From a virus (lineage: Duplodnaviria > Heunggongvirae > Uroviricota > Caudoviricetes), in IMG/VR virus record IMGVR_UViG_3300008120_000059, positions 1-64,000 of that record: 64,000 nucleotides of DNA; one strand, given 5' to 3'. The notes under the pieces are model-generated. The model was not told the origin of the DNA, did no database searches, and saw only the letters and a program-made list of their open reading frames with translations. The translations under genes and the position numbers were made by a program. Within the stretch, counting starts at the first letter, position 1; each line of letters starts with the position of its first letter. Below are positions 36,014 to 58,803 of this stretch, one piece after another.

Positions 36014-36586
36014 TTAAGTAAGGTAATCGATAATCTTTTGTTTTATACCAGATTGTTTGATACCTAAAGTAGATGATGGAGTTAATACAAAATTATCTAA
36101 ACCCCAATCTTTCCAGTCCTCTCCATTTTTACCCATATCCAAATCATCAACAGAAACCCAATGAGTAACTTCAGGGTGGTCGTGTAAAAATTGTTTAATC
36201 TCGATAACGCGAGTCATCTCCAAATCCCATCTCGGTGACCAAACCCATACTTTATCATTATACCAATTACACTGACCTAAATTAGGTGTGAGAGCGATTG
36301 GTTTTTTAGAGATACCTTTTGATTCGTAGTATTCACCCATTTCTTCGAGATTTGCCCACCTCTTCCAATCAGATGACGTTACAATTTCCGCACCTGTTTT
36401 TTCGATGATTTGGTTTAATACCTTAACCGCTTTTTGATTGAAATTATCAAATCGGTATTCTAGTGGCATTTCTGATGTTGTCATAGATAATTTACGACCA
36501 CCCCATTTTTCTTGTTTCTTGAATCGACCACCCCATTCTGACGACAAACAAATTACACCGTCGTGGTCTAAAAATATAACTTTCAT
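36014..36586 (-). CDS. HAD-superfamily hydrolase-like protein
   Basis: N-terminal VIFLDHDGVI (DxDGV) motif. Confidence 0.5.
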   Translation of the reverse strand: MKVIFLDHDGVICLSSEWGGRFKKQEKWGGRKLSMTTSEMPLEYRFDNFNQKAVKVLNQIIEKTGAEIVTSSDWKRWANLEEMGEYYESKGISKKPIALTPNLGQCNWYNDKVWVWSPRWDLEMTRVIEIKQFLHDHPEVTHWVSVDDLDMGKNGEDWKDWGLDNFVLTPSSTLGIKQSGIKQKIIDYLT

Positions 36587-42636: not shown

Positions 42637-44013
42637 TTACTTATCAGAATTCAAGTTACCTTGAATTGACCATGTGAAATCTAATTTAACATCATTCTTA
42701 AATAACGATGTGTCCATCATATCAATGTATTGATTTGTGGTGTATCCATTCTTACCCGTCATAGTCGACAATGCGTGACATGACATACAGTTTGTTTGCA
42801 TTCCATACACAAAATCAGGTCTGAATTTGTTTTGTAAACTGAAAACTTTTGGACCAAATCCACCCTCTAAATAAGGATTGAAAGCAAGTATCGGTCTAGC
42901 GTTGTTGTCAGAACCGCCACTCACAGGTTGATTCGGCCAAACCATTGCGTATGCTGTACTAACTGCGTAGTGTGAAGCGGCGCCTTTAAGTTCTTTAGGT
43001 CTAAGACCTGCTTCAAATTTAGAACTTGGTGAAGGAGGGTTAGACGGGTCAGGGCACCAAAAATAAGTTTGCCATGTCCAATTTTTAAATTCTTTTGTTG
43101 TTACGTGCATGGCTACCAACAACACATAGTCACCTTCGATAAATTGTCTACTTGGTGTAGTTCCAACGTCTTGGTGACTATTGAGATAGTCCGCACCTAC
43201 TCTATCAATTTTATAATTAATAAAATCATTTACGTTACAGGTCGCATCTTTAATTTGTTCCTCTGTGGGATTTGATGTTGTTACAGGTACTAACTTTTTA
43301 TTCGGTTCCTGTTTATTATTAACATCGGCGTAAACCCATTGTTGCCATTCATTATATCTATACGCTTTGGCCGGATTTGGTGATACCCAAACAGGTACTC
43401 TAATCAAACCGTTTTTACTTGGTACACCAGCATAATATGTTGGTTTGGTGGTGATTGAAGTATTAGGAAATTCAGGTACCGCACCAATTCCATCTTTTAC
43501 CAAATATTTGTTCAATGACGATTGATTAAATAATTTGTTTGATGTTGCAAAATGTGCCGCAGATGGGTCATAAGAAACTGTTTCCAACACAGTGAAGTTT
43601 GTGTCAATCTTTTGTCCCGCGAAAAGTTTACCATGTACAAATTGTTTCGGGATGTTAAGTTCAGTTCTGTTTGATTTTTCCATTGAACTTGAAACTTGAC
43701 CCTGTGCAGACATTGCAGATAGTTCTTGAACACCCATCCAAGTTTCAAAAACCAACAATGTTTGACCATTGTATTTTTGTTTTGTTGGTTGAGTAAGTCC
43801 AGCCCAAATACCCCACGCGTGATTTACAATACTGGTTGTATCTTGATTCTCTAACCATCCGTAAATTTTCGTAGAGTCTTCAGGAAAATTGAATCCCGAA
43901 ATACCTAAGTCCGTTGGGAACTCTTGTGGTTTAATTGTTTTACTCGTGTCAGAACATGAGTATACGATTGTAAACAATCCTAAAATTAATAATAGTGTTT
44001 TTGTAATTTTCAT
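42637..44013 (-). CDS. secreted lipoprotein with single CxxCH motif (458 aa)
   Basis: MKITKTLLLILGLFTIVYSCSD lipobox; NCMSCHA near C-terminus (heme c attachment consensus). Confidence 0.5.
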   Translation of the reverse strand: MKITKTLLLILGLFTIVYSCSDTSKTIKPQEFPTDLGISGFNFPEDSTKIYGWLENQDTTSIVNHAWGIWAGLTQPTKQKYNGQTLLVFETWMGVQELSAMSAQGQVSSSMEKSNRTELNIPKQFVHGKLFAGQKIDTNFTVLETVSYDPSAAHFATSNKLFNQSSLNKYLVKDGIGAVPEFPNTSITTKPTYYAGVPSKNGLIRVPVWVSPNPAKAYRYNEWQQWVYADVNNKQEPNKKLVPVTTSNPTEEQIKDATCNVNDFINYKIDRVGADYLNSHQDVGTTPSRQFIEGDYVLLVAMHVTTKEFKNWTWQTYFWCPDPSNPPSPSSKFEAGLRPKELKGAASHYAVSTAYAMVWPNQPVSGGSDNNARPILAFNPYLEGGFGPKVFSLQNKFRPDFVYGMQTNCMSCHALSTMTGKNGYTTNQYIDMMDTSLFKNDVKLDFTWSIQGNLNSDK

Positions 44014-44017
44014 TTTT

Positions 44018-44266
44018 TTATTTGTTTTTATTTTTATTTTCTATAACTATGAACTTATTTATTTCGTGAAGAACTTCGGCAGTATCATATCTTACACTAT
44101 AAACCACGTCCCATATTGTTCTATCATTATAAGAAGGGTGTAATCTTGATTGGGCCCATTTTTTGGCTTTATTAAAATCCTCTACTGACCATTTTACTGG
44201 TTCAACTATTGTTGGGGAATTTAAACGCCTAAGTTTCATCAATAGCAGTTTTAAAAATTTAATCAT
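44018..44266 (-). CDS. hypothetical protein (82 aa)
   Basis: ORF. Confidence 0.4.
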   Translation of the reverse strand: MIKFLKLLLMKLRRLNSPTIVEPVKWSVEDFNKAKKWAQSRLHPSYNDRTIWDVVYSVRYDTAEVLHEINKFIVIENKNKNK

Positions 44267-44438
44267 CTATATTTTTCAATTATCTGTTATGTTTTGGTGT
44301 ATAACCAATAACCAATTGATAACTAAACCAACCAATTATTAATTCATAATCACCATTTAACCAACTGTTATATGTTATTTTAACATATGGTAAAATATAA
44401 GATTGATATACAACTTTGTCAATACTTATTTTCATAGT

Positions 44439-45764
44439 TTAATTACTTAAGGGTGCTTTAATCGATGGGTGTGATTGATAATTTTCGATTTGAAAATCCT
44501 TATTTTCCAAATGAGTTATTAAAGATGAGTCTTCAGATAATGATTTATAAAATTCATCGGTCTTCATATGTTTTAGTTTGGGTAATTTATAAGGTTCTCT
44601 TGTGTATCGTGGTATTTTATATATCTCATAATATTCAGACATACCTCCACCAAATGGTGCTAAGTCTTTCAACGCACTTTTATAACCATTAGGACCCATC
44701 GCCTCTTTTAACATACCTTCTCTCTCTTCATGTGTATACTTTCTACCGATTTGTTCTCTTGCTTGTTCAACATGGTTACTATACAAATGAGTATCACCTA
44801 AATTACCAATCAACTCATCAGGTACCATATTTACTTCTTTAGCAATAATCTCAAGTAACAAACCGTAAGAAGCAATATTGAATGGTAGACCTAAGAATGT
44901 GTCTACTGAGCGTTGATTCCACATTAAAGAGATTGCTCGTTTAGGAACTCTTAAACTATCCATGTGAACATCGTGATAATCACTACTTTGATTTAAAGGG
45001 TCTTTTGTTGAGTTATAATAATTAATCCTTTCATCTAAACTCAACTCTCTCGTATAAACTTGAAATCCATAATGACAAGGTGGAAGAACCATTTGGTCCA
45101 GCTCTCCAACATTCCAAGCATTGACCATTAATCGTCTTGAGTCTGGATTTGTTTTAAGGTCGTTGATTAGGTTTGTGATTTGGTCTATTGAATTGTTTTG
45201 GTATTCTATTTTGACACCATACTTGGTAACATCTTCACCGATTTCAATTGCTTTTAGTACTCTGTGTTGGTCAGAACCTTTTACATCCTTTAAGTCGTAA
45301 TTAGTCACATTCTTTCTACCCCATCTTCTCCATTGCTTACCATACACAGGTCCGAGGTCACCCCACTTCTTAGCAAACTCATCATCGGTTTTTATTTTGT
45401 TGATGAATTCTTCTTTTGTTAATCGAAATCCTAACTCTAACATTTTTTCTTTTGACATATTAGGTAAGATTTTGGCATCTTCAATTAGATAGTTCTTATA
45501 CGCATCACCATCCCAAATATGACAATTGTTATCAACAAGGAACTTGATGTTTGTATCACCACGAAGGAACCATAACAATTCGGTTACCATCGTCTTCCAC
45601 GCCATTTTCTTGGTTGTAAGTAATGGAAACCCATCGGACATTTTATGACGGATTGTATAACCAAAAATAGATTTGGTTCCTGTACCTGTACGGTCTTTCT
45701 TTTCTACCCCATAATCTATAATAGTTTGGAGTAAGTCTGTGTATTGTTTATCTAATTTGTTCAT
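44439..45764 (-). CDS. thyA: thymidylate synthase (ThyA-type; or related dUMP hydroxymethylase) with three ~35 aa insertions and C-terminal extension
   Basis: DLGPVYGKQWR, SRRLMVNAWN, LPPCHYGFQVY, PFNIASYGLLLEIIA, GDTHLYSNH signature blocks; 441 aa vs about 265-320 typical. Confidence 0.8.
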   Translation of the reverse strand: MNKLDKQYTDLLQTIIDYGVEKKDRTGTGTKSIFGYTIRHKMSDGFPLLTTKKMAWKTMVTELLWFLRGDTNIKFLVDNNCHIWDGDAYKNYLIEDAKILPNMSKEKMLELGFRLTKEEFINKIKTDDEFAKKWGDLGPVYGKQWRRWGRKNVTNYDLKDVKGSDQHRVLKAIEIGEDVTKYGVKIEYQNNSIDQITNLINDLKTNPDSRRLMVNAWNVGELDQMVLPPCHYGFQVYTRELSLDERINYYNSTKDPLNQSSDYHDVHMDSLRVPKRAISLMWNQRSVDTFLGLPFNIASYGLLLEIIAKEVNMVPDELIGNLGDTHLYSNHVEQAREQIGRKYTHEEREGMLKEAMGPNGYKSALKDLAPFGGGMSEYYEIYKIPRYTREPYKLPKLKHMKTDEFYKSLSEDSSLITHLENKDFQIENYQSHPSIKAPLSN

Positions 45765-46378
45765 TACTCAAATGTTTGAATTTTTGCGTCTACTTCTTTT
45801 AATTCAGACCACGTTCCAAGATACGTAATCGCTCTGACTTTTCTATTATCAATCCACACATATTCTTGGTCATCTTTGATTCTTGGTTTGTCCATAACCA
45901 ATCCGTGATATTTAAAACCTTTTTCTTTTAACCATGTTTCGGTTACTTCACGGTCTTTACTTTCACGAGCGGTAAAAAATGTAATTACATTTCCCTCATC
46001 GTACCATTTGTTGATGATACCCAACGCGTTTGGGTAATGGTTAGCTGTCGGATAAAGATGTGAATCTTCATTTTTAATGTCGTCACAAATTGTCCCATCA
46101 ATATCAATCAGAAAAACCCGACTAACCATTTTTTGCGTTATTATGATGTCAGCAATTGTACTATGAAAAATATCATCGTACATTACTTGACAATTTGTTT
46201 TTAAAACATACTCGACTTCATCACCGTCTTTTACATCATATTTTCCGCTTTTTATTTTTTCTAAAGTTTCTTTTGATGCTTCAAAATTCTTTGATGAATC
46301 TTCAGAAACAATAAACCATCCTTCGACACTGTTAATAAGTTCGTCAGATTTTTTTTGATATATTAATTTACCTTTCAT
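45764..46378 (-). CDS. HAD-like phosphatase domain protein (204 aa)
   Basis: VFLIDIDGTICDD (DxDGT) motif in C-terminal half. Confidence 0.5.
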   Translation of the reverse strand: MKGKLIYQKKSDELINSVEGWFIVSEDSSKNFEASKETLEKIKSGKYDVKDGDEVEYVLKTNCQVMYDDIFHSTIADIIITQKMVSRVFLIDIDGTICDDIKNEDSHLYPTANHYPNALGIINKWYDEGNVITFFTARESKDREVTETWLKEKGFKYHGLVMDKPRIKDDQEYVWIDNRKVRAITYLGTWSELKEVDAKIQTFE

Positions 46379-46772
46379 TTCTAACCCATTTTCTATCTGA
46401 ATTTAATGTAAAAGCACCAATAAAATCGTCACCCCGATTCCAATCTTTTGGTGATAATAATGATAATGTATTTACACCATTAAAATTATATAAGTAATAT
46501 GTTTCACCAACAATTGGGTCAAAAGAAATTTTTGATTCCCAAACCATTATTGAATCCACATACTCTCTTTGAAGTTTTTCTATTGATTGAATGATTTCTT
46601 CTCTTTGACGATTAAAGACATCAATCATTTTTTTTGAGGACTCTTTTTTTACGAGACCCACATTAGGTAATTCAAATTTTGGCGAACCGATACTGGTAGG
46701 ATAATGCTTTCTATTAGCGTCGTACCCATTTGTTTCATCCCAAACAACAATATCAGGTTTCTTTTTATTCAT
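46368..46772 (-). CDS. hypothetical protein (134 aa)
   Basis: ORF. Confidence 0.45.
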   Translation of the reverse strand: MNKKKPDIVVWDETNGYDANRKHYPTSIGSPKFELPNVGLVKKESSKKMIDVFNRQREEIIQSIEKLQREYVDSIMVWESKISFDPIVGETYYLYNFNGVNTLSLLSPKDWNRGDDFIGAFTLNSDRKWVRNER

Positions 46773-46924
46773 CCTCCAAACCGTCCATTAAAGTTACGTC
46801 CCAATCTGAAAAATCGTCACCTAATTCCATACCCAATTTCAAATTTTCCAAAAAATTTTTTTCCCATTCCTCATAAGAAAGATTTGAGTTGGGATTTTGT
46901 TTAATGTAAATTTTATATTGTCTT

Positions 46925-47353
46925 TTAAGGGTTGACATCGTTTTGTTCAGAATCTCTTATGTCAATTAATTTTTGAATTCTACTCCTACCTTTTTCACCA
47001 ATTGGTACCGGATTACCTTCTTCATCAATCCTAACAAACCTTATGTTTGTTTTCAAGATGACAATTTGGTTACCTGTGTAAACATTATGTGCTCTTGCTT
47101 CCATATACAAGGTAACTGAAGTATTCCCTAATTTACTTGGTGACCCGTAAATTTTAATCAACTGACCCTCTTTGGCTGGTTTTTCAAAAAAACATTTATC
47201 AATTGATACGGTAACTAATCTTGGTGAATCACACAATTGCATGGAGTATCCCGCAGCCGCCGCGTCAATCCACGCTAAAAGTTTTCCACCGAATAAATTT
47301 CCGTGGAATCCTAAATCCGACTTTTTTATGGGGTGTGAATTCAAAAATTCCAT
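46925..47353 (-). CDS. hotdog-fold acyl-CoA thioesterase (YciA-like)
   Basis: GNLFGGKLLAWIDAAAAGYSM block. Confidence 0.6.
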   Translation of the reverse strand: MEFLNSHPIKKSDLGFHGNLFGGKLLAWIDAAAAGYSMQLCDSPRLVTVSIDKCFFEKPAKEGQLIKIYGSPSKLGNTSVTLYMEARAHNVYTGNQIVILKTNIRFVRIDEEGNPVPIGEKGRSRIQKLIDIRDSEQNDVNP

Positions 47354-47523
47354 TACTCAAAAGTTATTTGTTCTCTAATAATGTATTCTTTTAATGCGTT
47401 TTCCGCTTCTATTTTAGTTGCAAAAACCCCAATAGTTTGGTCAAATTCTGTTGGGTCGGACACACCAAATTGTCCGTTTAATGTTTCATAAATGAACGTA
47501 TCTAAAATTTGTTGACTTACCAT
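47353..47523 (-). CDS. small protein (56 aa; below ORF-track cutoff)
   Basis: Reverse-strand ORF MVSQQILDTFIYETLNGQFGVSDPTEFDQTIGVFATKIEAENALKEYIIREQITFE; TAATG overlap with thioesterase start. Confidence 0.4.
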   Translation of the reverse strand: MVSQQILDTFIYETLNGQFGVSDPTEFDQTIGVFATKIEAENALKEYIIREQITFE

Positions 47524-47530
47524 AATTAAT

Positions 47531-47695
47531 TTATATTTCTTGATTTTTATTTGATTCCGATTCTTGATTTATTGATTCAGAATTTTTAGTCTCTTGCATT
47601 TTCTTAAATAAATTCATCAATGTGGACTCTTCTCTCTTTAATCTTTGATTACGAGCTTGAACTTTTTTTCTATGTTCTTTGTCTTTTTTTCCCAT
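47531..47695 (-). CDS. small basic protein (54 aa; below ORF-track cutoff)
   Basis: Reverse-strand ORF MGKKDKEHRKKVQARNQRLKREESTLMNLFKKMQETKNSESINQESESNKNQEI. Confidence 0.35.
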   Translation of the reverse strand: MGKKDKEHRKKVQARNQRLKREESTLMNLFKKMQETKNSESINQESESNKNQEI

Positions 47696-47701
47696 GGTAT
47701 T

Positions 47702-48826
47702 TTATTCTTCTTCATCTTTTCGATAACTTTCCAAGAGTTCCTCCCCTGAAAGTGTACCGTATTTATTTACAATTTTTTCGGTGTCTATTTCAACATTCAT
47801 CATGTGATGAACATTATTTAATTCTTCGGCTAATGATAAACTATCACTAATCACTTTAACGATTTTATATGGGTCCGCGTGTGATGCTGGTCTCCTGTCT
47901 TCAAGATAACCCTTCCATGTCTCACCAACGGATTTTGGTACACGGATAGATGCACCTCTGTCTGAGACACCCCAACTAAATTTATCAATAGATTGTGTCT
48001 CAAAATGACCTGTTAATCTCAAATGGTTATCAGAACCATAAGAGTCAATATGTTCTTGTGTTCTTGATTCAAAAGACCTAAAAATTGCATTGAAGTATTG
48101 TTCACCACCCTCTTCTCTCATTTTTTGATTTGAGAAATTTGTATGTAAACCTGAACCGTTCCATTCTCCGTGGGTCATCGGTTTGGGATGTAACTCAATA
48201 GAACGACCATATTTCTCAGCAATTTTATGTAAAAAATATCTACTCATCCATAAATCATCAGAAGCGGCAATTTTACCTGTTGCAAAAATTTGGTATTCCC
48301 ATTGACCTAATGCAACCTCTGAATTGGTTCCCTCCACATTGATGTCATATTTTAAACACATGTTCAAATGTTCATCAGAAATATTTCGACCAACAATATG
48401 TCCACCTACACCACAATAATAAATTCCTTGACCGTCAATGATACCATTTCTTTCAAATCCAAGAATTGGATTATTATGTGAAGAACGAATAAAATATTCC
48501 TGTTCAAATCCAACCCAAAAATTTACATCTTCCTCACCTACTTTTGCTCTATGATTTGATGGATGAATTTCATTATTACCATCTAAAACCTCACATAATA
48601 CATATACTGTATCAAGTGAACTATTTGTATGATATAATTTTACTGGCTTAAGATAACAATCTGAAAAGTTACCTTCCGCTTGTTTAGTTGAGCTTCCGTC
48701 AAACCCCCAATTGGGGATGTGTTTCAATTCAAATGGTGCCGGTAGGTCCACAATTTTTATTTTACTTCTGAGATTTGGCTCAGGGGAATACCCATCAAGC
48801 CATACGTATTCTACTTTTGTTTTCAT
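47702..48826 (-). CDS. glutamine synthetase type II (eukaryote-like GSII)
   Basis: EYVWLDG, NWGFDGSST, GFEQEY, YYCGVG, TNSEVALGQWEYQI, WNGSGLHTNFS, GASIRVP blocks align along the full 374 aa. Confidence 0.8.
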   Translation of the reverse strand: MKTKVEYVWLDGYSPEPNLRSKIKIVDLPAPFELKHIPNWGFDGSSTKQAEGNFSDCYLKPVKLYHTNSSLDTVYVLCEVLDGNNEIHPSNHRAKVGEEDVNFWVGFEQEYFIRSSHNNPILGFERNGIIDGQGIYYCGVGGHIVGRNISDEHLNMCLKYDINVEGTNSEVALGQWEYQIFATGKIAASDDLWMSRYFLHKIAEKYGRSIELHPKPMTHGEWNGSGLHTNFSNQKMREEGGEQYFNAIFRSFESRTQEHIDSYGSDNHLRLTGHFETQSIDKFSWGVSDRGASIRVPKSVGETWKGYLEDRRPASHADPYKIVKVISDSLSLAEELNNVHHMMNVEIDTEKIVNKYGTLSGEELLESYRKDEEE

Positions 48827-49142
48827 TTTTTATAATATATGTTTTTCTGTATCTGAATACCGACCATAAAAATTAAGAATCTCAAAGCCAAACCCCAGCT
48901 TGGTGAGGTTGCACCGGTTTCAAAAAACGTGTCTTTACGGTAGTAAAATATGGGAGTTGGTAAAAGAAACCAATGGTATTTCTTTCTTATTACAAAAAAA
49001 TCCGTGATGTATTTCTTTTCTTTATTTGACATTTTTTTTCTTTTTTAAATAATCTAAAACTATATTGAATGAACCAAGAGAAATTATACCAAATCCAAAA
49101 TATTTTTCAATCTCGGGATTACTGGTGTTCATTCCGTATTTT

Positions 49143-49388
49143 TCAATTATGATTCCCGTCAGAATCATCAGTACGTAAATTATTGTCCTTATATTCATAT
49201 GTTTTTAAGTATTGAATTGTTTTATATAACGTGTGTGTTTCCCTCATGTTAAAAACACCGGAATAATGACCATGTTGTAAACCCATTTCAATAATTTGAA
49301 TTGCCATCTGTGGGTTTAAATTATCTAAAACCATTTCCAATTCATCATTATTGTCAAAATTTAATTGGTCGTTGAATAGTCCTTTCAT
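49143..49388 (-). CDS. hypothetical protein (81 aa)
   Basis: ORF. Confidence 0.4.
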   Translation of the reverse strand: MKGLFNDQLNFDNNDELEMVLDNLNPQMAIQIIEMGLQHGHYSGVFNMRETHTLYKTIQYLKTYEYKDNNLRTDDSDGNHN

Positions 49389-49412
49389 GATATTAAAATA
49401 TAGTAAACAAAT

Positions 49413-49808
49413 ATGATAAAGTCAAATATTTATAAAAATATGTCAGTGATTATTAATAATACAAAGTTCCCTGCGGAATACCTATCCGAACCTGAAGAAA
49501 TTAGTCAAGGTATGATGGGTAGAGATAATTTAAATGGTTGTATGGTTTTTAATATGGGTGGTGTTGGTCACCATTCTTTTTGGATGAAAAACTGTTTAAT
49601 ACCTTTGGATATTGTTTTTGTATTGAAAAATAGAATCAGTAAAATACATAGAAATTGTGAACCCGCTGGTCAAAATGAATTGAACCCAAAAAGATACACC
49701 GGCATAGGTGACCATGTTATTGAGTTTCCCGCCGGTGTTACTGATAAATTTAAAGAAGGTGACCGAGTTAATATGTATTTGGGAACACCTATGAATCCTG
49801 TCCGTTAA
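49413..49808 (+). CDS. DUF192-like protein (131 aa)
   Basis: IPLDIVFV ... block resembles DUF192/COG1430. Confidence 0.45.
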   Translation: MIKSNIYKNMSVIINNTKFPAEYLSEPEEISQGMMGRDNLNGCMVFNMGGVGHHSFWMKNCLIPLDIVFVLKNRISKIHRNCEPAGQNELNPKRYTGIGDHVIEFPAGVTDKFKEGDRVNMYLGTPMNPVR

Positions 49809-49810
49809 TT

Positions 49811-50665
49811 TTATTCTTCAAACATTACCAGTTGTTTCTTTTGGTTATCATAATCAATCAATCTCTGTTGAGATATCTTTGTGTAAGATTCTGATAACTC
49901 AAAACCAATATAATTTCTATTCAGCTTCTTAGCTGACAAAGCGGTGGTTCCACTTCCTGAAAAACAATCAACAATCAGGTCATTTTGATAGGAAAGTATT
50001 TTTATTGCTTTCATTGGGATGTCCATGGAGAATGTGGCTTTAGTTAAAGATTTTGTGTCGTTGAAGTATTTCCATTGACCAAAGACTAATTCCATGAATT
50101 CGTTTTTGTCTTTATCTGAATAAACCCTTTTGTTTTTAAAATTACCTTCCTCGTTTTCGACCTCAATCTGATTATAAGACCATTGAGATATACCTTTTTC
50201 TTTCTTTTTGTAATCTTTCTTATATGCAAGAATTACACATTCTTTTGGATTGTATATGTATGGTGATGATGGTGACATCCAAGAACCCCAAGCGGTTGTT
50301 TTAGAACGGTGTGGAGAATCCTCCTCTAAGTCCACAACACCAAAGAATCCAAAACCAATCTCTTTCATCATCTGCCAATATTCAGATACTAAGAAAATTC
50401 TCCCACCTCTTTCTCTAACGTTTATTTCATATGGTATATTCAAGGCAATTCTACCATCATCTTTTAATGTACGGTAAACTTCGGATAACCATTTCTTACA
50501 CCACTCAAAATACTCATCCATCGGAGCATCGTCTTTGTGCACATCATAACTAATACCGACATTGTACGGTGGACTCGTAACAAAGAGGTCTACAGTACCG
50601 TCATTTAACTCCTTAAACAGTTCTAAGCAGTCACCCTGATAAATTTTATTCATTTCCATTGACAA
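49811..50665 (-). CDS. DNA methyltransferase, beta-class amino-MTase (N4-cytosine/N6-adenine), SPPY motif
   Basis: Motif IV DLFVTSPPYN near N-terminus and motif I VDCFSGSGTT near C-terminus (beta permutation); no adjacent restriction endonuclease. Confidence 0.8.
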   Translation of the reverse strand: MSMEMNKIYQGDCLELFKELNDGTVDLFVTSPPYNVGISYDVHKDDAPMDEYFEWCKKWLSEVYRTLKDDGRIALNIPYEINVRERGGRIFLVSEYWQMMKEIGFGFFGVVDLEEDSPHRSKTTAWGSWMSPSSPYIYNPKECVILAYKKDYKKKEKGISQWSYNQIEVENEEGNFKNKRVYSDKDKNEFMELVFGQWKYFNDTKSLTKATFSMDIPMKAIKILSYQNDLIVDCFSGSGTTALSAKKLNRNYIGFELSESYTKISQQRLIDYDNQKKQLVMFEE

Positions 50666-50746
50666 ATTGTTTTCTATTTATTATTATTACAAAAGATAAC
50701 GAATAAAAAACAATAAACCAAAATATTTATAAAAAAACTTAAAATC

Positions 50747-50932
50747 ATGGGATGCGGATGTAAAAAAAGAAACCAACCTGTTAGTAATCAAACGGTAAAC
50801 ATTCAACTAACCGAAGGTGGTTCAACACCTCCACAGGAGATTACAATTATGGAACAACAACTTGACCAAATCATAAAAAAGGTTGAGGAGATTAACAATC
50901 AAACTAACGAAGAAAACACAGAAGGACAATAA
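50747..50932 (+). CDS. hypothetical protein (61 aa)
   Basis: ORF; first plus-strand gene after divergent region. Confidence 0.35.
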   Translation: MGCGCKKRNQPVSNQTVNIQLTEGGSTPPQEITIMEQQLDQIIKKVEEINNQTNEENTEGQ

Positions 50933-51008
50933 ATTGTATCGGACAGTCTAATAAATTGTCCGATATTTTTTGTCTTTTATAATATATATAAATTTATATA
51001 CTTATATT

Positions 51009-51209
51009 ATGCCTAAACAACAAACAAAACTAACCAGCGTTAACATCATAGATGATGTTTATAAAAGATTTAAGATAAAAAGTGTAGATGGTTCAATCAA
51101 TCTACAAAAATTAGTAAACCGAGCTCTTGACCTATATAACACTAGAGAAGATTTTAGAAAACAAATTGATAATCACAACGGTCTTGCACCAAACGGTTCC
51201 AAATTTTAA
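51009..51209 (+). CDS. hypothetical protein (66 aa; start moved to ATG 51009)
   Basis: Internal ATG gives MPKQQTKLTS... Confidence 0.4.
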   Translation: MPKQQTKLTSVNIIDDVYKRFKIKSVDGSINLQKLVNRALDLYNTREDFRKQIDNHNGLAPNGSKF

Positions 51210-51258
51210 GTTGTGAATTTTATTTCTTATATTATCATCAATATTTTAAAACAAAAAA

Positions 51259-52716
51259 ATGATTACAATAGGTTACAGTACAAGAGAGTCCAACCCAAAA
51301 TTTCAAGAATATTTAAAAAAAACTTGTGGACACCCCAAAGTTCAAGTTATTGAAAAAGTAAACAATGGTGAAAAAAGTCTTTCACAAACTTACAATGAAA
51401 TTATTCAAGAGTCGATTCATGATATTGTCGTACTTTGTCATGATGACATTTACTTTAATACGACTTCGTGGGGTAGAAAATTAGTCAAACATTTTGAAGA
51501 ATCTGACTACGGGATTCTCGGTGTTGCCGGTACAACCAATATTCATGAGAGTGGTAGGTGGTGGACAGATAATACCAAAATGGTTGGTATTGTTAATCAT
51601 GAAAATGAGGGTAAAAAATGGGAATCGAGATATGCAAATGGAATCCCAAATTCAATTCACGAAGTTTGTTTAGTGGATGGTTTATTCATTGGAATCCACA
51701 AAAACAGAATAAAACACACTTTTGATGAGTCAGTACCGGGTTTTCATTTTTATGATATGGTATTCTGTACTAGCAATCACTTAAGTGAGGTAAACATCGG
51801 TGTTATATACAACATAAGAATCACTCACAAATCAATCGGAATGACCAATGATTCTTGGGAAAAGAATAGGGAATTTTACATTGAAAAATTTAAAGAGAAC
51901 CTACCAATTAATATAACACCAAAAATTGATTATGACATAACCAAACCAAAACAGTTTAAAGATAAATTTAATTTAATAGTTCAAACATCAAACGATAATG
52001 AAAATTTAATTCAGTTTTTTGAAAACATAAAAAAATTACCAGTGTTTGATAGTTTACAGATTTCACTCATCTCGACGGATACCAATATAGACAATATTAG
52101 AGAATTTGAATCTGAAAATATTAAAATTTACGAGGGTTTTTTTGATACATTAAATAAAAACTTATCAGTACTGAAATGGGATGAATCGTTTATGGAATCA
52201 AAAACAGATTTGTTATTTTTCAGTAATGATACTGTTACCGTATTGAACGACGTTTTCTCAAGTATGTATTCAATATTTAAGAGTGAAAAAAATACTTTTG
52301 GGTGCGTCTTTCCTACAGTATTAGAAAACGACCGAACAATTTTTTCAAATGGATTGGATATAGTTCAAAACAACGAACAGTTCAATTTAATTTTTAAAAA
52401 CAAATCATCTTTTTTCAATATTTTACACGGACACTTTCCAAACAATTTTGGTAGTATTAGTGACTTTTTTGCCACTACATCTACAAATTTAAAAATGATT
52501 GATTGGTTTGATATTAATTTAGAAACATCAATTTATAACTTAGATTTTGCGTTGAAAACTTTACTTAAAAAACGTAAAACATTCATTGACACAAACAGTG
52601 TGGTAATGATTGATATGGCATCAAAATTTGAAAAGGTTGATGTTGAATTAAAACAAGTCTTAGGTCAGTACATAAACTCACCTGAAATTAGAAAAAATAT
52701 CAAACAATTAAGATGA
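51259..52716 (+). CDS. two-domain putative glycosyltransferase (485 aa); N-terminal GT-A-like
   Basis: N-terminal Rossmann-like region with VVLCHDD (DxD-like); first gene of glycan island. Confidence 0.5.
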   Translation: MITIGYSTRESNPKFQEYLKKTCGHPKVQVIEKVNNGEKSLSQTYNEIIQESIHDIVVLCHDDIYFNTTSWGRKLVKHFEESDYGILGVAGTTNIHESGRWWTDNTKMVGIVNHENEGKKWESRYANGIPNSIHEVCLVDGLFIGIHKNRIKHTFDESVPGFHFYDMVFCTSNHLSEVNIGVIYNIRITHKSIGMTNDSWEKNREFYIEKFKENLPINITPKIDYDITKPKQFKDKFNLIVQTSNDNENLIQFFENIKKLPVFDSLQISLISTDTNIDNIREFESENIKIYEGFFDTLNKNLSVLKWDESFMESKTDLLFFSNDTVTVLNDVFSSMYSIFKSEKNTFGCVFPTVLENDRTIFSNGLDIVQNNEQFNLIFKNKSSFFNILHGHFPNNFGSISDFFATTSTNLKMIDWFDINLETSIYNLDFALKTLLKKRKTFIDTNSVVMIDMASKFEKVDVELKQVLGQYINSPEIRKNIKQLR

Positions 52717-53492
52717 TAAAAATTGTATCGGGATTTACAGAAAAAGGTGGTTCTACCACTTTTTTTATAAACTTAACAAATTTCTTAAATGAAAATGGTA
52801 TTGATTGCACATTTTACGGTAATCAGAATTACCATTTAGACAAATGTAAATCAGGGAACATTGAAAAAGATTTAAAGTATGAATCTGATGATATTGTAAT
52901 TACCCATTTTTTACAACTACAGGAAAGACCACCTGTTAAAAAAGTTATTTTGTCTTGTCATGAAAAATGGTGGTTCCCTGTTGGTAAAATTAAACAGTAT
53001 TGGGACCTGTGCGTGTTTTTACATGAAGAGCATCGAAAATATCACTCGGATTACAGGGGTGATTATGTAATAATACCAAACATCAAAGAAAATTTAATTA
53101 TTTCAAATAAAGAGCTGGTAAGAAATATTGCAGGAATTATTGGTACAATTGAAGACAGAAAACAGACCCATGTGTCAATACAAAGAGCATTAAAAGACAG
53201 GTGTGAAAAAATCTATTTGTTCGGTCACATCGGTGACCAAAACTATTTTGACAAATTGGTAAAACCTTTAATGAATCCAAGAGTAATTCATTACGGTCAC
53301 ACCACCAATAAACAAGAAATGTACGATATGATTGGTAAGGTATATCACTCATCAAAGGGTGAGGTTGCTTGTTTGGTTAAAGATGAATGTTATTTAACCG
53401 GTACAGAGTTTTATGGTAATGAAGAGACTATGAATGAAGTTTCTAAATTAAGTAACGAAGAGATATTAACACTTTGGAAAAACATATTTTAA
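52713..53492 (+). CDS. compact GT-B-like putative glycosyltransferase (259 aa)
   Basis: GGSTTFFINLTNFLNENG N-terminal and ...YHSSKGE... C-terminal blocks; weak. Confidence 0.4.
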   Translation: MIKIVSGFTEKGGSTTFFINLTNFLNENGIDCTFYGNQNYHLDKCKSGNIEKDLKYESDDIVITHFLQLQERPPVKKVILSCHEKWWFPVGKIKQYWDLCVFLHEEHRKYHSDYRGDYVIIPNIKENLIISNKELVRNIAGIIGTIEDRKQTHVSIQRALKDRCEKIYLFGHIGDQNYFDKLVKPLMNPRVIHYGHTTNKQEMYDMIGKVYHSSKGEVACLVKDECYLTGTEFYGNEETMNEVSKLSNEEILTLWKNIF

Positions 53493-53493
53493 A

Positions 53494-54216
53494 ATGAAGA
53501 TACACGCACATATACTGTCATGGAATGAAGAAAAAATATTACCATTCACATTGGATTACTATAGTACAATCTGTGAAAAAATATTCATATACGATAATAT
53601 GTCAACGGACTCCTCTGATGAGATTTATAAGAGGTACCCAAAAGTTGAGGTTATTAAATGGGATAGTGGTAATGAAATAAATGAAATTAATTACGTAAAC
53701 ATTAAATCCGAAGAGTATAAAAAAAGAAGTAGAGGTCAGGGTGTTGATTGGGTTATAGTTTGTGACTGTGATGAGTTTATATACCATGAAAATCTTATGG
53801 ATAAACTTCAAGAGTACAAAGAAATGGGTATAACCGTCCCAAGAATAGACGGTCACGACATGGTTAGTACTGAATTTCCAATATACGACGGTGAATTCAT
53901 TACAACAAAAATTAAAACAGGTTCACAAACGTATGAACCAATGTGTAAAAATATAATTTTTCATCCTGATTTAGATATAAAATACGGCATTGGTGGTCAC
54001 AGTTTTAATTCTGTTGATGGTAAATTTTCGGATGAGCGGGAAATAAAACTTCTTCACTATAAATTCTTGGGTAAAGACTACGTGAAGAACATTTACATTT
54101 CAAGAGCAAAGAGATTGTCATCGTTCAATAAACAACATAAATTCGGTGAACATTATTTTAATTTACCATTCAATTACATGGACAGCATGTTAAAAGAAAA
54201 TTATCAAGTTATATGA
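53494..54216 (+). CDS. GT-A-fold glycosyltransferase (Glyco_tranf_2_4-like)
   Basis: ILSWNEEKILPFTLDYY ... IYDNMSTDSSDEI ... CDCDEF. Confidence 0.5.
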   Translation: MKIHAHILSWNEEKILPFTLDYYSTICEKIFIYDNMSTDSSDEIYKRYPKVEVIKWDSGNEINEINYVNIKSEEYKKRSRGQGVDWVIVCDCDEFIYHENLMDKLQEYKEMGITVPRIDGHDMVSTEFPIYDGEFITTKIKTGSQTYEPMCKNIIFHPDLDIKYGIGGHSFNSVDGKFSDEREIKLLHYKFLGKDYVKNIYISRAKRLSSFNKQHKFGEHYFNLPFNYMDSMLKENYQVI

Positions 54217-55034
54217 GGAAAATACTTATATCGGATTTTACCATTAAAGAAGTACCTCACGGTGGTTCTGAATGGGTGAATCAAGTTTTAATTGATAGAT
54301 TTAATCTTGAGTTTGAATATTCAAACCAAGTCAAGTCATTTGATTACAACGCCCTGTATATTATATCAAATATTTCTTTGATGAACCCAAACTTGGTTAA
54401 TCAAATACAAAATTTGAACTACGTCATTATTGAAAACGATTATAAAATATGTGCAAGTAGACACCCATGGAGATATACCGACAACATAATTCCGATTGAG
54501 GAAAGAACCAACTATTCTCTTTACCGGAATGCAAAAGCGGTATTTGTTCAAACAACCGACCACATGAACGTTTATCTTAAAAACGATGTTGTTGCTAATT
54601 TTATAAATCTGAATAGTTCGATATGGTCAAATGAGGACTTAGAATTATTGAGGAATTTAAATAAATCCAACAATGTTAAAAACGACAAATATTCTGTTTA
54701 CTATACAAATAATTGGATAAAGAACACCCAAGGTAGTCTGAAGTATTGTTCTGAAAATAAATTACCGGTCCATATTCTTAAAGAATCTAAAGACAGAGTT
54801 GAATTTTTAAGTAATATGGCCAAATGTAAAGGTATTGTGTTTTTCCCGATAGCAAGAGAAACTTTTTGTAGACTGGTTGTTGAGGCAAAATGTTTAGGTT
54901 TGGAAGTAATAACGACACAAAATTATGGTGCAAGTTTAGAAGAATGGTTTAATAGGTTATCAGGTGATGAATTAATTGATTTCTTAGAAACTAACACTTT
55001 AAAAAATTTAGAAATCATTTCAACTTATATATGA
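54213..55034 (+). CDS. GT-B-like (GT4-type) putative glycosyltransferase (273 aa)
   Basis: C-terminal ETFCRLVVEAKCLGLEVITT resembles the GT4 E-x7-E region. Confidence 0.4.
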   Translation: MRKILISDFTIKEVPHGGSEWVNQVLIDRFNLEFEYSNQVKSFDYNALYIISNISLMNPNLVNQIQNLNYVIIENDYKICASRHPWRYTDNIIPIEERTNYSLYRNAKAVFVQTTDHMNVYLKNDVVANFINLNSSIWSNEDLELLRNLNKSNNVKNDKYSVYYTNNWIKNTQGSLKYCSENKLPVHILKESKDRVEFLSNMAKCKGIVFFPIARETFCRLVVEAKCLGLEVITTQNYGASLEEWFNRLSGDELIDFLETNTLKNLEIISTYI

Positions 55035-56023
55035 TATTATTTTGTTACGGCACAAGACCTGAGTATATTAAAATAAAAAAATTAATAGAAATGTGTGGGG
55101 AAAGTATTCCCCATAAAATTTTATATGTTACCCAACACAAAGATATTGTATTGGGTGATTTTGATTATAAATTATCCATTGATGATACGTGTGAAAATAG
55201 ATTGGATAGTATTATGTCATCCGTATTTTTAAATTTTAAAAAAGAATTTTTGGAAGGGGTTACACATATACTTATCCAAGGGGACACCGCAACCGCTCTT
55301 TCATTATCCCTAATAGGATTACACCATAAAAAAGAAGTGATTCATTTAGAAGCGGGATTACGGACATATGACTACAATCACCCTTACCCCGAAGAAATGT
55401 ATCGGCAGTTAATTAGTAGAATTTCAAACTATAATCTTTGCCCAACAGAAAGTAACAAGATGAACTTAGAAAATGAAAAAGTTCAGGGTAAAAATTTTGT
55501 AGTTGGCAATACCGTATTAGATAATCTTAATAAAGAAAATATTACATACGAAAATAAAGTCTTAATCACTTTACATAGAAGAGAGAATCATGAGATGATG
55601 TCGGAGTGGTTTGATGTTATCAATCGATTAGCAAAGAATAATCCTGAATTAAAATTCATTCTTCCAATACACCCAAACCCAAACGTCATAAAACACAAAC
55701 ATATATTGACACATGTTGATGTTATTGAACCATTAACCCATGATAAATTTATTGAGGAATTCAAATCCTGTAAATTACTAATTTCAGATAGTGGGGGTGT
55801 TCAAGAAGAGGCGTCGTTCCTAAATAAGAAAGTTATTGTATGTAGAGAAAAAACTGAGAGACCTGAGTCCTTGGGTAAAACGTCTTTTATATGTAAAAAA
55901 CCCATTGACTTAGAAGGTATTTTTTACGATATTATTAACGATTTCCAAACAGAATATGATTGTCCTTTTGGTGATGGTAATTCTTGTGAAAGAATCATTG
56001 AAATATTTAGAAAAATTGTATGA
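55031..56023 (+). CDS. UDP-N-acetylglucosamine 2-epimerase (non-hydrolysing, WecB/MnaA-like)
   Basis: GTRPEYIK, HLEAGLRTYD, ITLHRREN, HPNPNV, SDSGGVQEEA, PFGDGNSCERI blocks align with WecB along the full length. Confidence 0.75.
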   Translation: MILFCYGTRPEYIKIKKLIEMCGESIPHKILYVTQHKDIVLGDFDYKLSIDDTCENRLDSIMSSVFLNFKKEFLEGVTHILIQGDTATALSLSLIGLHHKKEVIHLEAGLRTYDYNHPYPEEMYRQLISRISNYNLCPTESNKMNLENEKVQGKNFVVGNTVLDNLNKENITYENKVLITLHRRENHEMMSEWFDVINRLAKNNPELKFILPIHPNPNVIKHKHILTHVDVIEPLTHDKFIEEFKSCKLLISDSGGVQEEASFLNKKVIVCREKTERPESLGKTSFICKKPIDLEGIFYDIINDFQTEYDCPFGDGNSCERIIEIFRKIV

Positions 56024-56748
56024 GTATAACGGTAATATTAAATGGGTATAAAAGACCACATGTTCTCCAAAAACAATTGGAATCAATTAGAAATCAAAGT
56101 GTCCAACCCGAATCAATTTTATTTTGGCAAAATTCTGGTTCTCAATTTGATGAGGGACTAACCAAAGATTTAATTCACGCATCTTGTAATAGTAATTTAG
56201 GTGTGTGGGCAAGATTTGCATTTGCTTTAAATGCCAACACAGAATATATTTGTGTTTTTGATGATGACACAATACCGGGTAAACTATGGTTAGAAAACTG
56301 TCTAAACACCATGAAAATTCAAGAAGGTTTATTAGGAACTATCGGTGTAAAATTTCACACAAAAAACTCTTATTGGCCAGCAACAAGAGTCGGTTGGGAC
56401 CAACCTAACGAAGAAATTGAAAAGGTCGACATTGTTGGTCACTCGTGGTTCTTTAAAAGAGAATGGTTATCGATATTTTGGAGAGAATTACCTGAAATCA
56501 ATCAGAGTAAATTAGTTGGTGAGGATATGCACTTTTCATATACATTACAGAAATACGCAAATATCGGAACTTACGTTCCTCCCCATCCTAAAGAAAATAG
56601 AGAAATGTGGGGTAGTATACCAGAATATGCATGGGAACATGGAACTGATTCCAACGCAATTTCCGTAAATCATTCAAATATGAATTTAATGGGTGAAGTT
56701 TACCGTGGGTATGTAAATAAAGGATTTAAGACAATATTAAATGATTGA
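56020..56748 (+). CDS. GT-A-fold glycosyltransferase (242 aa)
   Basis: ITVILNGYKRPHVLQKQLESIRNQ ... VFDDDTIPG (DxD). Confidence 0.5.
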   Translation: MSITVILNGYKRPHVLQKQLESIRNQSVQPESILFWQNSGSQFDEGLTKDLIHASCNSNLGVWARFAFALNANTEYICVFDDDTIPGKLWLENCLNTMKIQEGLLGTIGVKFHTKNSYWPATRVGWDQPNEEIEKVDIVGHSWFFKREWLSIFWRELPEINQSKLVGEDMHFSYTLQKYANIGTYVPPHPKENREMWGSIPEYAWEHGTDSNAISVNHSNMNLMGEVYRGYVNKGFKTILND

Positions 56749-57460
56749 AAAGTATATTGAAGATTTTAATTCGTTTTGGGAAAAGATAGATAGTCGAACT
56801 AACTTTTCTTTTGTTAGATATGCCGATGGTGAAGTGATGTTAATGAATAATTCACCGATAGAAAAGAATACACAAGCGTATCAAAACGATAAATGGTTTT
56901 CGAGTGGGGGACAAACCAAATTAGGTGTGGATTTAAATGAATGTATAGGGTTGAACGACCCAAATTTTTATTTTGCAATATCCTCCAAAACTGATAGTAT
57001 TAGAGACTATAATTTTTTATATGATAGAATACAAAATAAATCAAACATTACATTTGCTAACCTATGGATTAACGCAAATTACAAAGAAAATATATCAAGA
57101 ATAAGAAATATAAATCGAGATGTTGTTTTAATTTGTAATGAAAATTGTGATTTAAAAAACATACCATTTAGTGTATCAGAATTTGTACCGTTCCCTAATG
57201 ATTGTGTAAACTATTGGGAAGAACATAGAGATTCGTTTTTAGAAAAAATATACAATGTTTCTTCAAAATATAAAGATACTTTATTTATCGTATGTTGTGG
57301 ACCAACATCTGCTGTTATCATAAAACATATGTTTACAAATAATAGTAATAACACTTATATTGATTTTGGTTCCGCATTAGATGTATTCATACATAATAAA
57401 ATAACTAGACCATACATGTATGAAGGGTCACAATATCATAATCACATATCAAAATTTTAA
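56741..57460 (+). CDS. hypothetical protein in glycan island (239 aa)
   Basis: ORF with overlapping start. Confidence 0.45.
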   Translation: MIEKYIEDFNSFWEKIDSRTNFSFVRYADGEVMLMNNSPIEKNTQAYQNDKWFSSGGQTKLGVDLNECIGLNDPNFYFAISSKTDSIRDYNFLYDRIQNKSNITFANLWINANYKENISRIRNINRDVVLICNENCDLKNIPFSVSEFVPFPNDCVNYWEEHRDSFLEKIYNVSSKYKDTLFIVCCGPTSAVIIKHMFTNNSNNTYIDFGSALDVFIHNKITRPYMYEGSQYHNHISKF

Positions 57461-57466
57461 TTCAGT

Positions 57467-58057
57467 ATGAATAATGATTTTTGTGTCATAGTACAAGGAC
57501 CTTCAGACTACGTTAAAGAATTAAAAAACGCTTGGACTGGTTATGATTTGATTTGGTCAACATGGCAAGGTGAAGAATCAAAATACGATACTAATGATGT
57601 TGTCTTATTCAACAGTATTCCACACGATAGGGGTGTACAAAATATAGCACTACAAAAAATATCAACTTTGAATGGAATAATGAAAGCCAAAGAAATAGGT
57701 TACAACAGAGTCCTTAAATGGAGAAGTGATTTACTACCATCTAATGCAAATAGATTAGTTTCCACATTTAAAAAAGAGTGTGTAAATTTTTTGACTTGGC
57801 ATAATGAAGGAAAATATTTTGTTGATTATTTTGTGGAGGGTGAAATAGATACGGTGTTTGATATTTGGAATGTATCTACCATACACGATGAGTATTCGGA
57901 AAAAATAATCACGGAAAATATAATATCACTTAACTATAAAAATATAAACTTTATGGGTGGCGAATTAAGTAATGATAATGAAATTTTTTGGTTAAAACGA
58001 AATATTAATTTGTCCACATATAAAGACGCACCATGTTATAGTATGGTGGTGATTTAA
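57467..58057 (+). CDS. hypothetical protein in glycan island (196 aa)
   Basis: ORF. Confidence 0.45.
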   Translation: MNNDFCVIVQGPSDYVKELKNAWTGYDLIWSTWQGEESKYDTNDVVLFNSIPHDRGVQNIALQKISTLNGIMKAKEIGYNRVLKWRSDLLPSNANRLVSTFKKECVNFLTWHNEGKYFVDYFVEGEIDTVFDIWNVSTIHDEYSEKIITENIISLNYKNINFMGGELSNDNEIFWLKRNINLSTYKDAPCYSMVVI

Positions 58058-58068
58058 AAATTATAAAA

Positions 58069-58803
58069 ATGATAGATAATTCAAAATTTATTGACGACGC
58101 ATTTACTCAAGATGAATTAAATAGGGGTGCCTTTACCGATTTGAATGGTAGATGTCCATTATGGACAACAAAAATGATTAATGTTATAAAAGATAAAATT
58201 GACTTTAATGATGTCAACACAATATTAGATATTGGGTCAAGAGATGGTTGCCAAAGTTTAGAGTTAAATAGATGGTTTCCACATGCTAAAATATATGCGT
58301 TTGAACCAGTAAAAGAAAACTACGAATTTACAGTTAAGAACGTTGAGAAAATTAATAACATAAAAGTTTACCAATACGCAATAAACAATTACAACGGTAA
58401 AACTAAATTTTACGAAGTTTATAATGGAAATGTGGGTGCCAGTTCTTTATTACAGACAACAAACCACTGGCGTTCATCTCAGTGGGCCCAAAAGGAAACT
58501 GAGGTTGACTGTATTGTTCTTAGTGATTGGTTAAAAGAAAATGATATTAAAAGTGTTGATTTGATTTGGATGGATGTTCAAGGTGCAGAAAATATCGTAT
58601 TAGACTCTCTAAAAGAATATTTAAATGATGTAAAAATAATAACCACCGAAGTAGGGTTACAGGAATTATATCGTGGTTCTACAAGTAAATCTGAACTAGA
58701 TGAAAAACTAAATAGGTTTATACCAATAGACGAGTCGCCAGAATCTTCAAACACAGAAATGGATGTGGTTTATATCAACAAAAATTTAACACCTTATGGA
58801 TAA
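58069..58803 (+). CDS. FkbM-family SAM-dependent methyltransferase
   Basis: ILDIGSRDGCQSLEL ... AFEP ... IWMDVQGAE blocks. Confidence 0.6.
   Translation: MIDNSKFIDDAFTQDELNRGAFTDLNGRCPLWTTKMINVIKDKIDFNDVNTILDIGSRDGCQSLELNRWFPHAKIYAFEPVKENYEFTVKNVEKINNIKVYQYAINNYNGKTKFYEVYNGNVGASSLLQTTNHWRSSQWAQKETEVDCIVLSDWLKENDIKSVDLIWMDVQGAENIVLDSLKEYLNDVKIITTEVGLQELYRGSTSKSELDEKLNRFIPIDESPESSNTEMDVVYINKNLTPYG

Follow-up and report, generated by a model that had tools for sequence, protein, structure and literature searches.

A gene for glutamine synthetase (GS) lies on the minus strand of a 64,000-nucleotide stretch of viral DNA (positions 1 to 64,000 of the IMG/VR record IMGVR_UViG_3300008120_000059, Caudoviricetes), which was analysed at its full length and is called the window below. 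To judge from its gene content and its relatives, the window is part of a large phage, probably of jumbo size, that infects Bacteroidota, and its GS appears to be a complete type II enzyme (GSII) that descends from the bacterial GlnII branch. We consider it probable that this GlnII-descended gene entered the ancestor of a clade of phages in a single acquisition and that its product makes glutamine during infection. The enzymatic activity, the expression timing and the physiological role are what we infer from the gene identities, residue conservation, phylogenetic placement, distribution and synteny reported here. An earlier model-made annotation of the same DNA (the original prediction) had described the gene as a eukaryote-type GS in a co-transcribed group with an acyl-CoA thioesterase and two small open reading frames (ORFs), and its claims are taken up where the results bear on them.

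Identity and phage context of the glutamine synthetase

The 374-residue protein carries both Pfam domains of the family (Gln-synt_N, PF03951, 36.4 bits with a cutoff of 33.4; Gln-synt_C, PF00120, 62.9 bits with a cutoff of 24), and among the NCBIfam models GlnII came first with 323 bits, against 47.5 bits for GlnA of type I (GSI) and 28.7 bits for type III (GSIII), which bears out the choice of type II made in the original prediction. The best PDB match was 4BAX, the GlnII of Streptomyces coelicolor, with 279 bits, followed by yeast Gln1 with 274 bits and by animal and plant enzymes with about 245-254 bits; the GSII chains together scored 244-279 bits, and GSI chains 36 bits at most. The AlphaFold2 (AF2) model of the protein also had 4BAX as its top Foldseek match, with a target-normalised TM-score of 0.78. 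Compared with bacterial GlnII (4BAX; NF041605), the phage enzyme has the same N-terminal start, the same core of ~335 residues and all of the catalytic residues, and it differs from 4BAX in sequence (42-46% identity; 45.5% over the core) and by an extra C-terminal tail of ~40 residues.

The active site was mapped through an alignment of 81 viral, 80 cellular and five solved GSII sequences, to which human GLUL numbering was transferred. All 21 mapped residues of the metal, ATP, glutamate and ammonium sites are kept in the window GS, and the same residues are invariant in 81/81 viral, 80/80 cellular and 5/5 solved enzymes (human, yeast, fly, plant and Streptomyces); the set includes D43, S46, E108, E110, Y137, E170, E177, N223, G224, H228, N230, S232, R270, E276, R290, R295, E309, R311 and R312. 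We take the roles of these residues to be those given in UniProt P15104 and in the human and maize GS structures, where D43, S46, Y137 and E276 shape the ammonium pocket. The viral clade has three substitutions of its own in otherwise conserved columns, all of them conservative, and the ratio of nonsynonymous to synonymous substitution rates (dN/dS) of the GS core is 0.06-0.16, indicating purifying selection. It is thus strongly supported that the window GS is intact and would be catalytically competent, and the catalytic residues are free of inactivating substitutions, as the original prediction requires.

The guanine-plus-cytosine (GC) content of the GS gene is 0.351, close to the 0.326 of the AT-rich window, so the composition of the gene matches the phage; GS loci of Planctomycetes and Saprospiraceae have values of 0.42-0.49. 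Many ORFs of the window match PHROG families, and phage families occur on both sides of GS. The closest isolated relative of the window is the Flavobacterium phage vB_FspM_immuto (immuto below), a myovirus of 160 kb, which has thymidylate synthase (ThyA) and thioesterase in the same relative order, with ~72% nucleotide identity for ThyA and 63% amino-acid identity for the thioesterase. The 637-aa helicase of the window has its best matches in phages of Bacteroides, Chryseobacterium and Flavobacterium. Small ORFs are dense, and no tRNA or rRNA gene was found in the 64-kb window. For the promoter motif TTTG...TAnnTTTG of the Bacteroidota type, the window has 14 occurrences, compared with 6.7 expected, and this number was reached in 0/100 shuffles. 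A protein identical to the window GS was found on 36 contigs, the longest of 288 kb, and the gene order of the window recurs on an independent contig of 82.6 kb. The host would probably belong to the Flavobacteriia. With viral genes on both sides and a viral genome around it, this host-like metabolic gene fits what is called a phage auxiliary metabolic gene, and the intact enzyme, the purifying selection and the phage context together uphold the original prediction of such a gene on a Bacteroidota viral element.

Descent, distribution and the viral tail

A neighbour-joining tree of the viral enzymes and their 80 best cellular matches was built with 200 bootstraps. The viral GS clade was monophyletic in 196/200 bootstraps and joined L083, a contig discussed below, in 200/200; both lie inside the bacterial GlnII radiation, with the eukaryotes as the outgroup, a split that was found in 200/200 bootstraps. 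Over 327 core columns, the window GS has 53-57% identity to the GSII of bacteria and archaea, 64% to L083, and 41-43% to the enzymes of yeast, fly, plant and human. Its alignment with 4BAX sets its residue 3 opposite residue 4 of that chain; the eukaryotic chains align from residue 21-71 onward. The eukaryotic enzymes (human GLUL, 2QC8/9OTP; yeast Gln1, 3FKY; maize GS1a, 2D3A) share family, fold and active site with the phage GS but have an N-terminal extension of 20-30 residues, and of up to 70 across the eukaryotic chains, which the phage protein is without. Judged on the tree and the alignment, the window GS is of bacterial GlnII descent and does not come from the eukaryotic branch, and the label "eukaryote-type" has to be given up. 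The collinearity with eukaryotic GSII on which the label leaned is real for the core only: the N-terminus starts as in bacterial GlnII, and the similar total length is a coincidence that arises from the C-terminal tail of the viral enzymes.

The viral GS clade is found on 142 IMG/VR contigs of up to 311 kb, and full-length identity to the window GS is 68% or higher in more than 120 protein clusters, on contigs of up to 321 kb. Contigs that carry the GS of the window measure 245-321 kb, and the samples are of the freshwater type. GSII genes are also present in Bacteroidota genomes, among them Zunongwangia, Gaoshiqia, Saprospiraceae and Flavobacteriaceae. The closest GS outside IMG/VR is that of L083 (SHWW01000027.1), a 24.8-kb contig of a metagenome-assembled genome (MAG) named "Flavobacteriaceae bacterium Baikal-deep-G76"; this GS has 339 aa, no tail, and an identity of 62-64%. 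The contig carries a CobS-like AAA ATPase (phrog_249), a 732-aa vWA/CobT-like protein and many small ORFs, and from this content it is probably a phage contig mis-binned into a bacterial MAG. We considered L083 as proof of a cellular Flavobacteriaceae origin of the viral GS but, given the phage-like look of the contig, regard such an origin as unproven.

Other huge phages, namely LR756501/LR756503 (735 kb) and LR745206 and LR756502 (about 640 kb), also carry a bacterial-type GSII, but their enzymes have 45-55% identity to the window GS, lack the tail (331, 358 and 365 aa) and fall on separate branches. Monophyly of all phage GS was found in 0/200 bootstraps, which implies at least three acquisitions of GS by large-phage lineages. 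In the 735-kb phage, a PPK2 polyphosphate kinase-like gene lies ~1.4 kb from GS (locus L163, LR756501.1:145789-154775).

Researchers have reported GS in 9 of 25 moraphages, which are jumbo, mostly freshwater phages of up to 307 kb with predicted Flavobacteriia hosts (PMC12619734), and the Huge Phage Genome Collection holds 248 GS genes in 247 huge phages, 215 of them freshwater or marine (bioRxiv 10.1101/2025.02.27.640493); earlier virome work on phage GS is summarised in PMC9083009. The phages of the two former reports, as far as the available portions of these sources describe them, resemble the present ones in being large (200-310 kb), aquatic and GS-encoding, with predicted Bacteroidota or Flavobacteriia hosts, while GS type, GlnII origin, C-terminal tail and DUF3310/methyltransferase synteny are not stated in those portions. 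Phage GS is therefore already known, and the finding is real but largely ordinary. The original prediction had called a GS on such an element unexpected, and this no longer holds, as GlnII occurs in Bacteroidota genomes and GS is widespread in large aquatic phages and already published.

The viral enzymes are 369-441 aa long (median 384), compared with 333-364 aa (median 337) for the cellular ones, and the difference lies in the C-terminal tail, about residues 335 to 371-374 of the window protein, which is present in ~99% of the GS sequences of the viral clade and in none of the cellular GSII. L336, M343, L364, L365 and Y368 are near-invariant in the tail, and its end is acidic. Where it could be measured, dN/dS of the tail is 0.14-0.46, so the tail is constrained, although less than the core. 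The AF2 model suggests, with moderate confidence, that the tail continues the last core helix and adds two short helices. A profile of the tail alone, searched against 1.84 billion representative proteins, gave 46 matches, and these proved to be C-terminal pieces of GS, repeats, or gene calls that are chimeric; a portable module on other proteins is ruled out by this search, and the tail occurs only on this GS clade. Four database proteins (P0150, P0154, P0168 and P0183) have the tail joined to unrelated N-terminal sequence and are probably frameshifted or mis-assembled gene calls. No prior description of a virus-specific GS tail was found in the literature. The tail perhaps serves oligomer stabilisation or a phage-specific interaction.

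Neighbouring genes, small proteins and thioesterase

The surroundings of GS were compared in 80 viral loci with a flank of 6 kb on each side. Directly downstream of GS, on the same strand and with a median gap of 2 nt, 68 of 79 loci have a gene for a DUF3310 protein (PF11753, 1.1e-14). The 12 loci without an adjacent DUF3310 gene are exactly the closest relatives of the window, and their slot holds o54 and/or o56, the two small ORFs between GS and the thioesterase, or in two cases a HAD gene. Elsewhere in the window, DUF3310 gave marginal matches only (E >=0.001, 24-28 bits), which we treated as absence. The DUF3310 proteins of loci L010-L082 (e.g. L023:7124-7405) have 72-99 aa, some with a Cys-rich N-terminal extension, CxCN...GG.G.CQC. 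An N6/N4 DNA methyltransferase and a DUF192 protein are further recurrent neighbours (Table 1); they are linked to GS in both sub-lineages, upstream of it in the group of the window and on its downstream side in the majority. The majority sub-lineage also has, in 30 of its loci, a SET-domain (lysine methyltransferase-like) protein with a median of ~467 aa that lies ~1-4 kb downstream of GS (e.g. L076:9712-11679; PF00856, 5e-10). The linkage of GS with DUF3310 and the methyltransferase may go back to synteny within the lineage and not to a functional coupling.

The four ORFs of the original prediction, from GS down to the thioesterase, are all present on the minus strand where it had placed them. 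Of the TAATG overlaps that it described between them, the one at the o56/thioesterase junction exists, whereas GS and o54 are separated by a 6-nt gap and o54 and o56 by a 7-nt gap. These genes belong to a run of 14 genes that follow one another on the minus strand between 49388 and 42637, with junctions from -56 to +13 nt, and tight packing is a trait of the whole block and thus not special to GS, o54, o56 and the thioesterase. A terminator scan of 44000-51300 remained at chance level (4 sites compared with 3.4 expected, none of them on the minus strand), as did a sigma-70 promoter scan of the same region (38 sites compared with 35.6 expected), and the strict Bacteroidota promoter motif had no minus-strand match inside the block. 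Co-transcription is plausible for the minus-strand block, given its packing and the lack of a terminator-like site on the strand, so this part of the original prediction can stand in a more general form, but the packing gives the four genes no unity of their own. On the plus strand near the start of the window, the 32-nt sequence TTTGGTATAAAAGAAAAATTGTTATATCTTTG occurs in three identical copies, each fitting the -33/-7 promoter pattern of Bacteroidota, and the copies are possibly repeated phage promoters 5' of small plus-strand genes.

The small protein o56 is a real gene product with a predicted compact fold: it has 32 protein clusters, nearly all of exactly 56 aa and with 17 invariant columns, its dN/dS is 0.05-0.11, and the AF2 model is a compact alpha-beta3-alpha structure with a mean predicted local distance difference test (pLDDT) score of 93.3. 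Fold searches with this model gave no significant match (best E 0.04); DNA-binding domains of AP2 and of the lambda Int N-terminal kind recur among the top ones, a weak resemblance that may serve as a lead only and from which we assign no function. The Lys/Glu-rich o54 had no match in Pfam, NCBIfam or PHROG, and intact counterparts of 59-61 aa stand at the same position in only two related loci, with 52-56% identity. Its dN/dS is ~0.11 in the one measurable pair, and it is probably a real but fast-evolving gene.

The thioesterase belongs to the hotdog superfamily and resembles the YciA/Acot7 type. Pfam 4HBT (PF03061) matched it with 1.1e-15 and 58.2 bits (cutoff 20.6), and its PDB matches include 1VPM, 2GVH, 3D6L and YciA itself (1YLI); the YciA equivalog model NF007970 gave 32.3 bits and its cutoff of 162 was not reached, so on these scores we place the protein in the family at the superfamily or subfamily level only. 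With YciA, Acot7 and BH1999-type enzymes (1YLI, 1VPM, 2Q2B), it shares the 4HBT domain, the FGG motif, conserved Asp residues and a length of ~140 aa. Neither D13 nor D30 varies among the members of the phage clade and three solved relatives, and FGG21-23 is likewise shared without change with solved relatives. The catalytic Asp of the family is Asp44 in YciA and Asp213 in Acot7, and in homomeric YciA the Asp alone was picked out by mutagenesis (PMC2698920); the equivalent of YciA Asp44 in the phage protein is either D13 or D30. The phage clade differs from the solved relatives in that their "DTN" loop is "DLG" (residues 13-15) in every phage-clade thioesterase, that of immuto included, and the equivalent of Acot7 Asn24 is Gly ("SDLG").

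In all, 7,084 homologues of the thioesterase were found, and the best 120 clusters have at least 82% identity, on contigs of up to 312 kb. Thioesterases of the same type occur in immuto and in Xanthomonas phage XacN1, and the phage copies stand beside ThyA. The thioesterase adjoins ThyA, with no GS within 10 kb, in immuto and in loci L166/L167; in L168 it lies by an IMPDH/GuaC-like gene, again with no GS within 10 kb, and in the huge phage LR756502 thioesterase and GS are ~280 kb apart. In L168-L170, a PPK2 gene lies near the thioesterase, together with a protein that has a Por_Secre_tail domain of the type IX secretion system (T9SS), a marker of Bacteroidota. Among the 80 viral GS loci, the thioesterase is near GS in 4, o56 in 9 and o54 in 2. 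The adjacency seen in the window is thus lineage-specific and not that of a module, and the pairing of GS with the thioesterase in the original prediction does not hold up. From this distribution, we read the thioesterase as a phage gene in its own right, which is more conserved still than GS and usually accompanies thymidylate synthase. The thymidylate synthase of the window is itself unusually long, as are the homologues in immuto and L166 (~420 aa), and the two separate stretches in which the Pfam model matches it imply a large insertion.

Table 1. Positions of the GS gene, its neighbours and other features of the window
Feature	Position	Strand	Basis or remark
Glutamine synthetase, type II, bacterial GlnII-like, 374 aa	47702..48826	-	Pfam, NCBIfam, PDB match, AF2/Foldseek, residue conservation
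Viral-clade C-terminal tail of GS, residues about 335-374	47705..47824	-	Alignment, length, AF2, dN/dS, profile search
o54, 54-aa Lys/Glu-rich ORF	47531..47695	-	Intact in 2 relatives; no family match
o56, 56-aa small protein	47353..47523	-	32 protein clusters, dN/dS, AF2; TAATG overlap with thioesterase start
YciA/Acot7-type hotdog acyl-CoA thioesterase, 142 aa	46925..47353	-	Pfam 4HBT, PDB relatives, conserved motifs
57-aa ORF, DUF2452, HAD phosphatase, thymidylate synthase (441 aa)	44439..46938	-	Pfam; junctions -14 to -1 nt; same packed block, downstream
Thymidylate synthase alone, 441 aa	44439-45764	-	Pfam model matched in two stretches
69-aa ORF directly upstream of GS	48823..49032	-	ATGA stop/start overlap with GS; kept at position in 9 related loci, 59-80% identity
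DUF192 protein, frequent GS neighbour	49413..49808	+	Pfam DUF192 2.8e-18; in 39/80 viral loci
N6/N4 DNA methyltransferase, recurrent GS neighbour	49811..50665	-	Pfam N6_N4_Mtase 3e-36; within 6 kb of GS in 72/80 loci
Island of 14 tightly packed genes	51259-63368	+	One gene is a glycosyltransferase (Glyco_tranf_2_5 in the identical L002 locus)
UDP-GlcNAc 2-epimerase WecB	55031-56023	+	4e-60; within the island
Three identical copies of TTTGGTATAAAAGAAAAATTGTTATATCTTTG, 32 nt	202-233, 959-990, 1347-1378	+	Fit to Bacteroidota -33/-7 promoter pattern
2OG-Fe(II) (2-oxoglutarate) oxygenase	19624-20496	-	Weak match only
Class I/II aminotransferase	23944-25053	-	6.7e-21; host-like gene
SPFH/Band 7 protein	30615-31466	-	3.9e-23; host-like gene
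HAD_SAK_2 RNA-repair-type phosphatase	36014-36586	-	8.2e-21; host-like gene

Function of the viral enzyme and its meaning

According to the explanation that we favour, a single gain of GS would have taken place in the ancestor of a widespread group of large aquatic phages, and purifying selection would have kept the gene since. During infection, it would be co-expressed with thymidylate synthase, the HAD phosphatase and the DNA methyltransferase, which are genes of DNA and nucleotide metabolism, and it would convert glutamate, NH4+ and ATP into glutamine while escaping the nitrogen control that the host exerts over its own enzymes. The glutamine may then keep up the supply of amide nitrogen to the host amidotransferases that take part in making purines, pyrimidines, NAD and amino sugars. 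The thioesterase would stand beside GS through a lineage-specific rearrangement, and o54 and o56 would fill the slot that holds the DUF3310 gene in most relatives.

Several observations weigh against this explanation. The 323 bits of GS lie below the 500-bit equivalog cutoff of the GlnII model NF041605; the low score is that of a divergent clade and is compatible with belonging to the family, although it precludes an automatic equivalog assignment. The AF2 monomer model has a mean pLDDT of 74.8, with low values in the active-site loops 129-140 and 274-293, and the tree does not single out a donor lineage. Neither the conserved tail nor the association with DUF3310 and the methyltransferase is accounted for by a simple supply of more glutamine. 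Finally, no phage-encoded consumer of glutamine was found in the window, whose larger ORFs include no glutamine amidotransferase (GlmS-like enzymes included) and no queuosine or 7-deazaguanine gene, so that the sink is assumed to be host enzymes.

Some of these observations could also be read as signs of a new function of the viral GS, which might act in DNA or nucleotide modification, as a gamma-glutamyl ligase on an amine other than ammonia, or in a scaffold or regulatory role. The conserved and constrained tail that is unique to the viral clade, the DUF3310 gene that follows GS so closely, the methyltransferase that stays near it despite rearranged gene order, and the missed GlnII cutoff all speak for such a change. 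However, the ammonium, glutamate, ATP and metal sites vary at none of their residues, the fixed neighbourhood may reflect no more than the backbone synteny of a single phage lineage, the sub-lineage of the window has lost the adjacent DUF3310 gene and yet kept GS, and other phage GS lineages (LR756501, L083) do without the tail. We therefore regard a new function as improbable. A milder possibility, to which we give slightly more credit but which we still think unlikely, is that the tail and the near-obligate downstream DUF3310 gene confer on GS a property that cellular GSII is without, making it a rewired enzyme and not a mere extra copy; if so, the enzyme might have another assembly state, be insensitive to feedback or inactivating factors of the host, or dock to a phage protein.

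The original prediction linked GS, o54, o56 and the thioesterase in a co-transcribed module that would supply glutamine for UDP-GlcNAc, the substrate of WecB in the glycosyltransferase island. The packing on one strand, the single TAATG overlap and the missing terminator agree with this, WecB was confirmed, and the island does adjoin GS in the window and its close relatives, but only there: most GS loci have no homologue of the window's glycosyltransferase within 6 kb. The few loci in which thioesterase, o54 or o56 accompany GS, the distance between thioesterase and GS in immuto, L166/L167, L168 and LR756502, the extension of the packing over 14 genes and the lack of a GlmS-like amidotransferase leave the GS-thioesterase-WecB module largely refuted by the comparative data, and we hold it to be very unlikely. 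Even less credible is a cellular origin of the region, in which GS would be a normal host gene on a Bacteroidota chromosome, plasmid or island. Within the 64-kb window, the analysis identified no gene for a structural protein of the virion, and the closest "cellular" GS, that of L083, is filed under a Flavobacteriaceae MAG; both would fit a cellular region. Against this stand the 142 IMG/VR contigs of the viral GS clade, the ThyA/thioesterase synteny with immuto at 63-72% identity, the helicase and the many ORFs that match phage families, the dense small ORFs and missing tRNA and rRNA genes, the probable mis-binning of L083 itself, and the tail, which cellular GSII is without.

The explanation by a once-acquired, glutamine-making phage GS suggests that large aquatic phages intervene in the nitrogen assimilation of their hosts, which would be relevant to nitrogen-limited lakes and oceans and has already been argued in the literature. 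This work adds a bacterial GlnII-like origin of the enzyme, at least three acquisitions by phages, a tail that is unique to one lineage, and a thioesterase that appears to be independent of GS and to travel with thymidylate synthase. The details of the tail and of the thioesterase offer handles for biochemistry, and the overall picture of GS in large aquatic phages is unchanged by them.

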